Below are positions 35,001 to 61,117 of a DNA stretch of 64,000 nucleotides, piece after piece. The notes beneath the pieces were generated by a model. That model was not told where the DNA came from and searched no databases. It saw only the letters and a list, made by a program, of their open reading frames with translations. Origin of the DNA: an uncultured Clostridia bacterium. GTDB taxonomy: Bacteria; Bacillota; Clostridia; TANB77; CAG-508. The stretch spans positions 20,089 through 84,088 of the forward strand of contig CAMZHI010000001.1 in NCBI GenBank assembly GCA_947306755.1. Reading direction: 5' to 3'. Position 1 is the stretch's first letter, and every line of letters starts with the position of its first letter. The translations under genes were made by a program, and so were the position numbers.

Positions 35001-36350
35001 AGTATGAATAAAAGAGAAAAAGAAAAATTAAATGGTAATTATGAAATAGATAAAAAAATATTTACCAAAAAGATGAAAAAAGATTATACAATTTTAATTC
35101 CTATGATGCTACCTATACATTTTGAACTTTTGGAACCTGCTGTTAATTCATGTGGTTATAATATGCATTTACTTAGAGAATGTACTATGCATACTGTAGA
35201 AACAGGATTAAAATATGTTAATAATGATGCTTGTTACCCATCTATTCTAGTTACAGGCCAAATGATTGAAGCTTTGGAGTCTGGTGAATATGATGTAGAT
35301 AAAACTGCTTTAATTATGTCTCAAACAGGCGGGGGTTGTAGAGCAACTAACTATATTGGCTTTATCCGTAAGGCTCTAAAAGATGCTGGTTTTGAACAGG
35401 TGCCTGTTATATCTTTAAATGTTGTTGGTATGGAAAAATCCTCTGGATTTAAGTTAACTCCACATATGATAGAAAAACTATTAAGAGGAGTTATGCTAGG
35501 AGATTTACTTCAAAAAATGTTACATAAAAACAAAGCATATGAAGTAAAAAAAGGTCAATCTCAAATGATATTTAATCAATGGATGGAAAAATCAAAAGAT
35601 TTGGTAACAATAGGATCTAGTAAAGACTTTAAACAAGCTGTATACCAGATAGTTGAAGAATTTGAAAATATAGAACTTGATTTATCTAAGAAAAAACCAA
35701 AAGTAGGAATAGTTGGAGAAATTTTAGTTAAATATCATCCTTTTGGAAATAATCATGTTACTGATTTATTAGAAAAAGAAGGAGCAGAAGTTGTTCTTCC
35801 TGATTTTATGGGATTTATAAAATATATGGCTACAAATAAAATTACATTTAATAAATTATTAAATACTAATAAAACAGCAAGTACAATCAGCAAAATTGCA
35901 TTAAATCTTATAAATATTATGGAAAAAGATATTAGAGAAGCTTTATCAAAATCCAAAAAAGATTATTTGCCACTTACAGATATTTGGGATTTACAAGACA
36001 AGGTAAAAGGTATTTTATCAATAGGGAATCAAACAGGAGAAGGTTGGTTTTTAACTGCTGAAATGGCAGAATATATTGAACACGGAATAGAAAACATTGT
36101 TTGTATACAACCATTTGCATGTTTACCAAACCATGTTGTTGGAAAAGGTGTAATTAAAACAATTAGGCAAAAATACCCATTTGCCAATATTTCTCCTATT
36201 GATTATGACCCTGGAGCTAGTGAAACTAATCAAGCAAACAGAATTAAGCTTTTAATGACTGTTGCAAAAGATAATCTAAAACTTAAGGAGAACGAGAAAT
36301 TAGCTTTGGAGAAAAAAAATGGTAATACTCCTGTCAATGTTGAAGTATGA
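32043..36350 (+). CDS. Fusion of two BadF/BadG/BcrA/BcrD-type ATPase (CoA-substrate-specific enzyme activase) domains with a 2-hydroxyacyl-CoA dehydratase (HgdB/DUF2229)-like domain
   Basis: 1435 aa. Two acetate/sugar kinase-fold ATPase modules (GLDVGSTTVKVIVM..., GIDAGSTTTKLVLI...). A Cys cluster (TRCNGCENHCKLT...GNRCEKG). The C-terminal half matches the dehydratase family. Confidence 0.75.
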   Translation: MSEMVLHIGLDVGSTTVKVIVMNDNKEIIYKDYRRHFSDTKNTICEMLNELNEKYPNSKFTIALTGSGAMSAAKFLGVNFIQEVVSCKRAVEKYIPETDVVIELGGEDAKIIYFDKSIEQRMNGTCAGGTGAFIDQMSSLLNTDTAGLNEMAKHHTTIYPIASRCGVFAKTDIQPLINEGAAKEDIAASIFQAVVNQTISGLACGRPIRGKVAFLGGPLTYLSELRNRFIKTLNLKDDEIIIPEEAHLLVATGAALDSIEEVPFTNEKLIQKIENFKNSTDNTTHPIEPLFKSEQEYESFKQRHSKSTIAKNNLENYKGDCFIGIDAGSTTTKLVLIDKDGKLLHSIYGSNEGNPLQSTIKMLKELYSIIPKTAKLRFSGVTGYGEQLIKTALNVDIGEIETIAHYTAAKTFEPEVTSIVDIGGQDMKYIHLKNGAIDTIMLNEACSSGCGSFIETFAKSLNLDISEFVKQAIESKRPVDLGSRCTVFMNSKIKQAQKEGYTVGDISSGLSYSVIKNALQKVMKIRDFETLGRNIVVQGGTFYNDAVLRAFEKIVGKNVIRPDIAGLMGAYGIALIAKEQYETNLDMEYYSSISKQEDLDKLDIKITHTRCNGCENHCKLTINTFNNGKKHISGNRCEKGAGNSGLNKKSLPNLIKYKYERIFEYKPLDEKQATRGTIGIPRVLNMYEDYPFWFTFFTNLGFRVIISEKSTRATYEKGMESMPSESVCYPAKLSHGHIESLIEQGIKTIFYPCMPYSRKEQEKADNKFNCPIVISYSEVLKNNVENLKKDDIKFINPFLPFDIPNLVKKVMELEEFKEYNFSKQELINAAEKAENEYQKCKEDIRERGRKTVKFLQDKNLKGIVLAGRPYHMDPEINHGIDTLITSLGLAVLTEDSISNEVEVKRPIRVVDQWMFHSRLYAAADFVGKHDNLELVQLNSFGCGVDAVTTDQVEEILRSFGKMYTLIKIDEVNNLGAVKIRIRSLIASMNKREKEKLNGNYEIDKKIFTKKMKKDYTILIPMMLPIHFELLEPAVNSCGYNMHLLRECTMHTVETGLKYVNNDACYPSILVTGQMIEALESGEYDVDKTALIMSQTGGGCRATNYIGFIRKALKDAGFEQVPVISLNVVGMEKSSGFKLTPHMIEKLLRGVMLGDLLQKMLHKNKAYEVKKGQSQMIFNQWMEKSKDLVTIGSSKDFKQAVYQIVEEFENIELDLSKKKPKVGIVGEILVKYHPFGNNHVTDLLEKEGAEVVLPDFMGFIKYMATNKITFNKLLNTNKTASTISKIALNLINIMEKDIREALSKSKKDYLPLTDIWDLQDKVKGILSIGNQTGEGWFLTAEMAEYIEHGIENIVCIQPFACLPNHVVGKGVIKTIRQKYPFANISPIDYDPGASETNQANRIKLLMTVAKDNLKLKENEKLALEKKNGNTPVNVEV

Positions 36351-36417
36351 GGTTGGAAGTGTGATGTGAGAGGTGAGAGGTGAGATGTGGGGAATGAGAA
36401 TTCACACATCTCACTTC
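36349..36417. repeat. Family A dispersed imperfect palindrome (GAGGTTGGAAGTGTGATGTGAGAGGTGAGAGGTGAGATGTGGGG ... CACACATCTCACTTC)
   Basis: Overlaps the stop codon of the upstream gene and marks the left edge of the accessory block. Confidence 0.55.
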
Positions 36418-36626
36418 ATTTTATTATATTTGTATTTTAAAAAATTGACATTTTATTACAATTTTTTTACATAATATTGCAAAAAGATTACAAATTCTTA
36501 ACATTTATATTAAATTCCAGGCTAATTTACATAAAACTGTTGAAAAATTTTCCAATTTGTTGTATAATGTAATTATGTGTATTAAAAAGTTTAATTAATA
36601 AAAAATAAAAGGAGGATTAAACTATT

Positions 36627-60643: not shown

Positions 60644-60672
60644 ATTGTACCCTAATTTGAAAATTTTGTCAA
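60644..60672 (-). promoter_or_regulatory. Putative sigma-A promoter driving the pilin-like genes
   Basis: On the minus strand: TTGACA (60672-60667), 17-bp spacer, TACAAT (60649-60644). Confidence 0.35.
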
Positions 60673-61027
60673 TACTTTGCAGTTTAAGTTTTTTTCTTTT
60701 TGAGAAATTGTTACAATTTACAGCTAAATTATTATTGTAGAGTAGCAACGTTTCATTGTATATTTTTTCGTGCTTTAGCCTAAGAAAAAACATATACAAT
60801 GCACAGCAAAGTTGCGACTTTAATATAGCTATGAATAGTAACGATAAATGATATTACATATAAAGGCCAAATAATAAGTATTAATTTGTTTTTCACTACT
60901 TCAGGTTGTCCATAATTTACCAACTATATTTTAGTATTAAGAATATTTGACTAAATTTAAAAAAATCTATAGCACATTAGATCAAACCTTTTTTTCTTTT
61001 TCTAATGTATTATAGATTTTATAATTT

Positions 61028-61117
61028 TGGCGTAGGTGAGAGGGTTCGAACCTCCGCGCCGATGACTCGACCTAGCAGTTTAGCAAACTGCCCCCTTCAC
61101 CACTTGGGTACACCTAC
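61028..61117 (-). tRNA. tRNA-Ser (anticodon GCU)
   Basis: 90 nt with a long variable arm. Acceptor GTAGGTG/CACCTAC, anticodon loop TTGCTAA, T-loop GGTTCGAACC, CCA encoded. Confidence 0.85.

Follow-up and report, generated by a model that had tools for sequence, protein, structure and literature searches.

A conserved, probably domesticated type IV secretion locus of uncultured gut Clostridia with a Patescibacteria-like gene set

Monoderm type IV secretion systems and a clostridial counterpart

The functions known for type IV secretion systems (T4SSs) of Gram-positive bacteria consist almost entirely of one-way DNA transfer, and according to a December 2025 review the T4SS of the Patescibacteria, with its possible pili and its requirement for growth, is unique among monoderms (PMC12857230). 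The Patescibacteria system is derived from conjugation modules of the MPF_FATA type and comprises TrsD (a homologue of the VirB4 N-domain), PrgI, VirB4, VirB6 and an array of 2-11 VirB2-like pilins; its gene clusters are mostly without a relaxase and often near dnaA (PMC12102498), and in Southlakia the system is essential for epibiotic growth (PMC12857230). Here we describe a T4SS locus in an uncultured Clostridia bacterium (TANB77; CAG-508), located at ~44.8-60.7 kb of a 64,000-nucleotide stretch of contig CAMZHI010000001.1 (assembly GCA_947306755.1), which was analysed as a whole and is called the window below. We found no paper describing this T4SS in gut Clostridia; a study of a "conserved pilin" in TANB77 (PMC11680825), considered as a direct match, concerns a Tad/CpaF pilus cluster at a different locus.

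We propose that the locus is a chromosomally fixed and vertically inherited monoderm T4SS which arose from the mating-pair-formation (MPF) module of a plasmid or of an integrative and conjugative element (ICE), lost its local DNA-processing and self-transfer functions and builds a VirB2-type pilus or conduit for contact and exchange, and we regard this proposal, taken as a whole, as moderately probable. The part of it that a sequence-only reading of the window had already put forward, namely that the locus is a domesticated T4SS and not a conventional ICE, can be held with high confidence, given the synteny across 80 species, the co-divergence with ParA and ParB, the housekeeping flanks and the absence of mobility genes and of an attachment-site (att) repeat. 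That the machine would act as a contact and exchange organelle like that of the Patescibacteria is drawn by analogy and is put forward only tentatively.

The clostridial locus and the Patescibacteria T4SS (e.g., that of Southlakia epibionticum ML1; Wang et al. 2023; Quinonero-Coronel et al. 2025, PMC12102498) are both chromosomal, monoderm and MPF_FATA-like, and both are often origin-proximal. They share a separate TrsD-type protein corresponding to the VirB4 N terminus, VirB4 and VirB6 and, with a putative assignment in the Clostridia, PrgI/VirB3, as well as downstream cell-wall hydrolases, divergent VirB2-like arrays, the lack of a nearby relaxase and inheritance within lineages. In contrast to the ultrasmall cells of the Candidate Phyla Radiation (CPR), however, the host here belongs to the Bacillota, is Clostridium-like and has a genome of ~1.4-1.7 Mb, and VirB8-like NTF2 proteins, which are rarely detected in CPR, are clear. 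Its closest annotated sequence relatives are found on Clostridium plasmids (42% identity), and because these are closer we think it unlikely that it belongs to the Patescibacteria VirB4 clade. We therefore see in it a second instance, now in the Bacillota and probably independent of the Patescibacteria, in which a T4SS of the conjugation type has become fixed in the chromosome as a core organelle.

The core order of VirB2-like, VirB3-like, VirB4, VirB6-like, hydrolase and VirB8-like genes is also that of Gram-positive MPF modules (pCF10 prgF-prgL, Tn916 orf17-13, ICEBs1 conB-cwlT, the C. difficile CTn2 CD1110 type and the Mycoplasma ICE), and the best NCBIfam matches point in the same direction, with the CD1110 VirB4 family first and Mycoplasma ICE families for VirB4, a pilin-like and a transmembrane (TM) protein, all of them below curated cut-offs. 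Unlike these modules, the locus described here has no type IV coupling protein (T4CP), relaxase, oriT-processing gene, integrase or adhesin nearby, is vertical and core instead of patchy, and contains three pilin paralogues that are detectable by TrbC/VirB2 profiles. The sequence-only reading had regarded VirB2-like pilins as missing from Firmicutes conjugation systems. A December 2025 review still treats the Patescibacteria as the one exception (PMC12857230). This view is contradicted by a preprint of the same month, which surveyed over 1000 conjugative plasmids of Gram-positives and reports that nearly all encode VirB2-like homologues of PrgF, reported PrgF as essential in pCF10 and extended the polymerisation of pilins on a VirB6 platform to Gram-positives via PrgF/PrgH (bioRxiv 10.64898/2025.12.18.695078), and also by the pilin-like genes on the plasmid relatives of the locus.

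In the closest annotated cluster, carried by Clostridium plasmids (p12/29, NZ_CP107023), VirB4 and the TraC-like protein are 42% and 29% identical to those of the window, the gene order is the same and the VirB6-like protein likewise has an N-terminal T4SS_pilin-like segment. It differs in being plasmid-borne, in its single pilin-like gene, in the tyrosine recombinases, the actin-like partition protein and the VirB11-like ATPase (of the family shared by type II secretion, type IV pili and T4SSs) further downstream, and in its MOB-suite type, which is "non-mobilizable". Among diderm bacteria, the ComB system of H. pylori is a chromosomal and species-conserved reduced T4SS with VirB2, B3, B4, B6 and B8 homologues but no relaxase, VirD4 or VirB11. 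The clostridial locus resembles it in having a reduced VirB2/B3/B4/B6/B8 set without relaxase or VirD4, whereas ComB is a diderm system with VirB7/9/10; beyond common membership of the VirB4 superfamily in general we know of no relationship between the two sequences, and no search for one was made.

Conservation and genomic setting

A scan of one genome per species yielded relatives in at least 329 species, and the counts of synteny and flanking genes given here refer to the best 80 of these species-level genomes. All 80 hosts are uncultured gut Clostridia (from human, mouse, rabbit, chicken and sheep), including Clostridium sp. CAG:575 and CAG:780, and their VirB4 proteins are 79-87% identical to that of the window. 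The order of the genes, i.e., pilins, PrgI, TraC-like, VirB4, VirB6-like, 307-aa family, hydrolase and 449-aa family, is the same in 80/80 loci. The block, which had been described from the sequence as accessory, is instead part of the core of a large clade and is inherited vertically, and the patchy, horizontally transferred distribution expected of an ICE or a conjugative plasmid is not observed.

Pairwise identities were calculated for 26 genomes that carry parA, parB and virB4 on one locus. With a mean pairwise identity of 0.835, VirB4 is as conserved as ParA (0.837) and more conserved than ParB (0.732), and it co-diverges with both, the VirB4 distances tracking the ParA plus ParB distances with a Mantel r of 0.67 that was reached in 0 of 2000 permutations. 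Mean identities are 0.62 for the PrgI-like, 0.54 for the TraC-like, 0.39 for the 307-aa and 0.31 for the 449-aa protein, and the pilins of the relatives, encoded in arrays of 1-6 genes per locus (most often three), are 30-57% identical to the window pilins. A conserved cytoplasmic motor combined with fast-evolving exposed parts is the pattern of a functional machine.

In agreement with the sequence-only reading, which saw no coupling ATPase, relaxase or tyrosine/serine recombinase between the block and its flanks, none of these was found anywhere in the 64-kb window, where the sole integrase-fold gene belongs to an insertion sequence (IS) transposase with an rve integrase core (6023-7021, plus strand), 36 kb away. 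Within ±10 kb of the operon in the 80 related loci there was neither a recurrent relaxase or integrase family nor a T4CP-sized open reading frame (ORF) with a Walker A motif, and the surroundings of two anchor genes, sampled over ~2 Mb of sequence from the clade, contained no T4CP or relaxase either. The lack of a local T4CP, relaxase or VirB11 suggests that self-transfer of the locus is not its purpose.

Two tRNA-Ser genes abut the operon, with parB and parA beyond them, and on the other flank of the block lie a hydroxyacyl-CoA dehydratase activase gene and housekeeping genes. The classical origin-proximal (oriC) cluster, mnmE-mnmG-rsmG-parA-parB-DUF4446, precedes the operon in at least 25 species, and in other species it follows nrdD/nrdG, the PRPP synthetase gene (prs), yqeY and two M16 peptidase genes, so that the adjacency to tRNA-Ser, first taken as a hint of an ICE integration site, is incidental. 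A direct repeat of the tRNA-Ser 3' end had been suspected near 36.4 kb; 28-nt and 17-nt probes with up to three mismatches matched only the tRNA itself in the window, where no second copy exists. On the evidence of the window and the 80 loci, the T4SS locus is not an ICE or another mobile element.

Outside the clade, the nearest cluster (L103; 64% identity) has a chromosomal-looking context. Genes of 122 and 483 aa occupy its PrgI and TraC-like positions, and it further encodes three TrbC pilins, M23 hydrolases and a VirB6-like protein with a T4SS_pilin match. Its pilin array is preceded by genes for TraX (F-pilin acetylase family), a single-stranded DNA-binding protein (SSB) and an M23 peptidase (L103:3571-5793), which are remnants typical of conjugative elements. 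At 42% VirB4 identity, large plasmids of C. botulinum (p12/29, NZ_KT897275) and C. beijerinckii (NZ_CP107023) have the same core order, with genes for a pilin-like protein, a small 105-aa protein, TraC-like, VirB4, VirB6-like and a C39_2-type hydrolase, and p12/29 also carries tyrosine recombinases and a VirB11-like ATPase. Relatives at 34-40% identity lie on contigs with dnaN, helix-turn-helix (HTH) regulators and a VirB11-like T2SSE ATPase, and one of the distant relatives examined (L105) has a T4CP, of 1030 aa, which together with a phage-type integrase is encoded 6-10 kb upstream. As the relatives at 34-42% identity are located on plasmids or mobile-element-like contigs, the window system appears to be a trimmed and chromosomally fixed derivative of a plasmid or ICE mating-pair-formation module.

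Components of the machine and neighbouring genes

The minus-strand genes listed in the sequence-only reading were all present at their places, and profile searches confirmed most of their names. The window is AT-rich (G+C ~27%) and its composition is unbroken across the block. All ORFs from 60557 to 42259 are co-directional on the minus strand, and the T4SS unit covers ~44.8-60.7 kb, or 42.26-60.7 kb with the ABC (ATP-binding cassette) transporter genes counted. The block had been drawn wider, from 36.3 to 61.1 kb, but 36.3-42.2 kb is unrelated. In operon order (60557 to 44803, minus strand) the genes encode three pilins and the PrgI-like, TraC-like, VirB4, VirB6-like, 307-aa, hydrolase and 449-aa proteins, and in the window the ABC transporter genes come after the 449-aa gene. 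Of the defining parts of a VirB4-based T4SS, the VirB4 ATPase, a VirB6-type protein and a VirB2-type pilin are present. An affiliation of VirB4 with the MPF_FATA class is putative and has indirect support from the below-cut-off CD1110 and Mycoplasma ICE matches and from the nearest relatives on Bacillota plasmids. The set also looks monoderm: profile searches of the window proteins gave no matches to VirB9/10, and instead of an outer-membrane core (VirB7/9/10) there are predicted NTF2 VirB8-like proteins and a large multidomain hydrolase.

The three VirB2-like pilins (all on the minus strand) exceed the Pfam gathering scores for TrbC/VirB2 and T4SS_pilin alike. Pilin 1 (143 aa; 60126-60557) scores 30.7 bits against TrbC (cut-off 27.9) and 28.2 bits against T4SS_pilin (cut-off 26.6), pilin 2 (130 aa; 59718-60110) 35.2 and 29.9 bits, and pilin 3 (149 aa; 59197-59646), which also weakly matches the NCBIfam Mycoplasma ICE pilin-like family Mbov_0395, 38.8 and 50.3 bits. 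Each has a signal peptide followed by two TM helices, the topology of VirB2, and the paralogues share 41-51% core identity (42-44% between pilin 1 and the other two). A promoter-like site ahead of pilin gene 1 (TTGACA-17-TACAAT; 60644-60672, minus strand) agrees with the consensus at 11 of 12 positions; no other stretch of 42-61.1 kb fits the sigma-70 type better, although this is a consensus match only. The pilin array ends in a terminator-like hairpin with a 12-bp stem and a T run, which follows it directly (59151-59178, minus strand). A strong promoter-like site before pilin 1 and a hairpin after pilin 3 would fit a higher expression of the pilins than of the machinery, and the hairpin could act as an attenuator that sets the ratio between them.

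The next gene (58606-58968, minus strand) encodes a 120-aa PrgI/VirB3-like protein, which against Pfam PrgI reaches 24.3 bits (E 4.6e-5) where the cut-off is 27; its size and its hairpin of two adjacent TM helices fit the VirB3 type, and the gene is found at the same position in 78 of the 80 loci. It is followed by a 399-aa TraC-like (TrsD-like) protein (57414-58613, minus strand) with one N-terminal TM helix. This protein had been described as bitopic and coiled-coil, of which the membrane anchor holds, and its identity is that of a VirB4 N-domain homologue: residues ~55-320 align with the N-terminal ~200 residues of longer proteins related to VirB4 (P0131, P0190, P0247, P0147), and an identical protein carries the precomputed Pfam assignment PF26593, TraC-like. 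The downstream parts of the same four relatives align with the 663-aa VirB4 of the window. As the 399-aa and 663-aa proteins align to successive parts of longer VirB4s, VirB4 is split here into a membrane-anchored N-domain protein and an ATPase, an arrangement known from pGO1 and the Patescibacteria (PMC12102498); the TraC-like gene is kept in 80/80 loci.

The VirB4 ATPase itself is encoded by a 663-aa ORF (55487-57478, minus strand), for which gene callers place the start 12 codons later (651 aa). It matches Pfam P-loop_TraG (59.9 bits), AAA_10 and DUF87 as well as the Thermoanaerobacter VirB4 structure (PDB 4AG5; 2e-26), and its NCBIfam matches to the C. difficile CD1110-type (5e-61) and Mycoplasma ICE-type (4e-56) VirB4 families are both below the equivalog cut-offs. 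The Walker A (GAGKS) and Walker B (VLVDEA) motifs are intact in the sequence. The VirB2 and VirB4 assignments made earlier are thus upheld by Pfam and, for VirB4, also by NCBIfam and PDB 4AG5.

For the VirB6-like protein (1140 aa; 52045-55467, minus strand), the polytopic character and the position next to virB4 stand as originally read, while profile support for VirB6 is weak (NCBIfam MMCAP2_0566, 5e-8; TrbL_4 in 4 of 51 relatives). The protein begins with a signal/TM segment and a hydrophobic hairpin, continues with an extracellular alpha/beta domain of ~250 aa and a five-TM core (residues 398 to 622), and ends in a long C-terminal tail of low complexity. T4SS_pilin matches the N-terminal part of 42 of the 51 family members, so that the platform protein seems to bear a pilin-like module. 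The extracellular loop (residues ~160-380) shows a weak likeness to ligand-binding domains of the dCache/PAS type (Foldseek match to that of TlpA, E 0.07). Together these features suggest a pilin-VirB6 fusion (residues 1-150 pilin-like) with a possible sensor-like ectodomain. In one rabbit-gut species, three tandem VirB6-like paralogues follow virB4 (L041:11993-20724) and no 307-aa, hydrolase or 449-aa genes are detectable in the fetched locus, an arrangement that recalls the VirB6 expansions of the Rickettsiales.

Sequence-profile searches of the PDB with the 307-aa, 449-aa and VirB6-like families returned nothing meaningful, so that a fold comparison was needed for these families. The 307-aa bitopic protein (51097-52020, minus strand), with an NTF2-like domain and a beta-sandwich, is a VirB8-like candidate, and the 449-aa bitopic protein (44803-46152, minus strand), the gene for which was detected in 63/80 loci, shares the NTF2-type domain with it (hhalign probability 93%, E 2.8e-7). 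The VirB8 equivalents of Gram-positive T4SSs are NTF2-like bitopic proteins. Between the two genes, a 1643-aa multidomain peptidoglycan hydrolase (46153-51084, minus strand) represents the VirB1 analogue and combines an N-terminal TM anchor with Peptidase_M15_4, GDSL, Phage_lysozyme2 and C39_2 modules. Among 47 species, the catalytic modules at this position are swapped around a conserved scaffold (NlpC/P60 in 18, Phage_lysozyme2 in 16, CHAP and glucosaminidase in 9 each, C39_2 and GDSL in 7 each, M23 in 5 and M15_4 in 2).

An ABC transporter that is possibly associated with the T4SS is encoded at 42259-44656 (minus strand) by a 241-aa DrrA-like ATPase (43931-44656) and a 559-aa permease with 12 TM helices (42259-43938). 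It lies downstream of the 449-aa gene in only ~21 of the 80 loci, a hairpin with a GTGAGAG repeat element separates it from that gene, and it is probably a separate transcription unit. Loci without the transporter have, after the 449-aa gene, a conserved gene of ~433 aa (24 loci; L026-L056 at ~19-21.5 kb, e.g., L056:20134-21435) or of 525 aa (4 loci; L075:19843-21420) with no Pfam match, and these genes may encode further lineage-specific components. In another locus (L065) the ABC transporter stands straight after the VirB6-like gene and the 307-aa, hydrolase and 449-aa genes are not there; the distal part of that operon was either lost or relocated.

Three genes on the plus strand (36.6-42.2 kb) do not belong to the T4SS. 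Two of them (36627-40389) are ORFs of 861 and 400 aa in different frames that overlap by 26 nt, the larger of which contains 10.5 copies of a 30-nt repeat (37447-37760) with the unit KGKDVPSDDD. The sequence-only reading had given them as one acidic repeat protein of ~1250 aa; the repeats are there, the single reading frame is not, and the two ORFs are probably one gene of ~1260 aa with a frameshift (a sequencing error, a pseudogene or a programmed shift). The third gene (40528-42249) is a very divergent DnaB-like gene (DnaB_C only 25.8 bits; TIGR00665 1e-5) which might, by its sequence, encode an unusually diverged replicative helicase of the clade. Homologues with 46-88% identity occur in 21 metagenome loci (L082-L102), most of which place them beside valS, ftsY, UPF0182 or uvrA, and the gene is unlinked to the T4SS in 18 of the 21. 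The window arrangement recurs in one locus only, that of an 88%-identical relative, and two loci (L018 and L095) have the DnaB-like gene beside parB. The repeat protein is not conserved even in the close relative with the 88%-identical DnaB-like gene (L082). The proposal that these two proteins are paired with the T4SS as substitute DNA-processing partners was rejected, given that the former is clade-wide in housekeeping contexts and the latter unconserved, and their proximity is coincidental.

A purine-rich heptad repeat (GTGAGAG/GTGAGAT) in 3-4 copies occurs between genes at 23446-23469 (minus strand), 24179-24213, 36359-36389 (plus strand) and 44725-44755 (minus strand), with 10 matches compared to 0.04 expected by chance, and could be an element of the repetitive extragenic palindromic (REP) kind or one associated with terminators. 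At least the copies at 36.36 and 44.74 kb are followed by a hairpin. These two copies are mutually inverted and bracket the repeat-protein, DnaB-like and ABC genes; they were considered as the ends of an element, which was set aside since the motif is also present at 23.45 and 24.2 kb. Elsewhere in the window, a 1899-aa DUF11/Ig-like surface protein (11319-17018, minus strand) and the IS transposase are both unrelated to the T4SS.

Possible function and competing explanations

In T4SSs, the extraction of pilins and the biogenesis of the pilus are powered by the ATPase VirB4, and VirB6 provides the platform for pilin polymerisation. On this basis, the three pilin paralogues would be inserted into the membrane by Sec and signal peptidase, and VirB4, tethered by the PrgI/VirB3-like protein and the TM-anchored TraC-like N-domain, would extract them for polymerisation on the VirB6-like platform, whose N terminus is itself pilin-like. 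The two NTF2-type (VirB8-like) bitopic proteins would then scaffold the passage through the wall, in which the giant modular hydrolase would open the peptidoglycan. This would yield a pilus or conduit of the VirB2 type, a core organelle of the cell surface that would serve for contact and exchange with neighbouring cells (uptake or delivery of macromolecules) and not for transfer of the locus.

Several observations weigh against this proposal. The loci used for the Mantel test have the T4SS physically linked to parAB, and co-transfer of a large segment could also fit the correlation. The absence of T4CP and relaxase covers the 64-kb window and ±10 kb in the 80 relatives, and in Patescibacteria T4CP genes occur far from virB4 (PMC12102498). 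Moreover, the PrgI match of the 120-aa protein falls short of the Pfam cut-off (24.3 versus 27 bits), and because the NTF2 fold is common, the label "VirB8-like" rests on fold and context.

We considered whether the machine instead takes up DNA, as do the competence T4SS ComB of H. pylori and the archaeal Ced system, for which neither a relaxase nor a coupling protein is needed. The VirB2/B3/B4/B6/B8-like set without a local T4CP, relaxase or plasmid-type VirB11-like ATPase does resemble the reduced ComB set, its conservation is vertical and core-like, and DNA import is listed in a FEMS review among the functions of Gram-negative T4SSs and of archaeal Ced (PMC12857230). However, neither in the window nor in the 80 loci does the operon have competence genes (comEC, dprA, comF) as neighbours, Gram-positives normally use ComG/type IV pili and ComEC, and the essentiality of the Saccharibacteria T4SS is independent of comEC (PMC12857230). 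We regard DNA uptake as unlikely. A conjugation apparatus acting in trans, in which a T4CP and relaxases encoded elsewhere use the channel to mobilise other elements or chromosomal DNA, would suit the fact that all known close kin of the machinery are located on conjugative-type plasmids or mobile elements, and T4CP genes are often far from virB4 (PMC12102498). Conjugation genes are typically patchy and fast-evolving, however, and a VirB4 that in hundreds of species is conserved as well as ParA and has a fixed place among housekeeping genes would be unusual for them. The ~2 Mb of sampled clade sequence contained no T4CP or relaxase, and the operon lacks the VirB11-like ATPase found in its plasmid relatives; we judge this explanation to be distinctly unlikely.

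Protein secretion or interbacterial antagonism, with effectors (possibly including the modular hydrolase) delivered to competitors or host cells, appears improbable to us. In its favour are the extensive shuffling of hydrolase modules (NlpC/P60, lysozyme, CHAP, glucosaminidase, M23, M15 and GDSL), as in polymorphic toxins, the adjacent ABC transporter in some lineages and the precedent of an effector-secreting Gram-positive system, the T4SS of the Streptococcus suis 89K island (PMC12857230). In contrast, the hydrolases carry an N-terminal TM anchor and a conserved scaffold, as in VirB1-type hydrolases of Gram-positives, no immunity-like small genes were recognised, and the T4SSs known to translocate effectors, among them the S. 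suis system, depend on VirD4. Finally, an ordinary ICE or genomic island at tRNA-Ser, with its mobility genes just outside the window, is hardly credible: although two tRNA-Ser genes abut the operon and its machinery has its ancestry in conjugative-type plasmids or mobile elements, the genes beyond the tRNAs are parB and parA (with rsmG, mnmG and mnmE in relatives), the activase and housekeeping genes occupy the other side, the tRNA 3' end has no direct repeat, the operon of other species is placed among other housekeeping genes, and VirB4 co-diverges with ParAB.

A pattern like that of the Patescibacteria, with an origin-proximal chromosomal locus, a pilin array, neither relaxase nor coupling protein beside it and a motor conserved like ParA, is now seen in true Bacillota and in hundreds of uncultured gut species. 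By analogy with epibiotic Saccharibacteria, one may speculate that this clade of gut Clostridia with small genomes independently turned a conjugation machine into an indispensable pilus organelle with which it taps other bacteria or the host for macromolecules; we consider this rather unlikely as it stands, but if true, a T4SS-mediated dependent or parasitic lifestyle would be a convergent trait found outside the CPR and would explain why it is difficult to culture these bacteria, which are abundant in the human gut. Provided that the system is functional, conjugation machinery has been co-opted as a core organelle more than once, and the Clostridia would offer a more tractable phylogenetic series that leads from plasmid relatives through a sister lineage to a fixed core locus, together with a concrete surface structure, open to testing, that may be the reason why a prevalent group of gut bacteria depends on partners and is not culturable.

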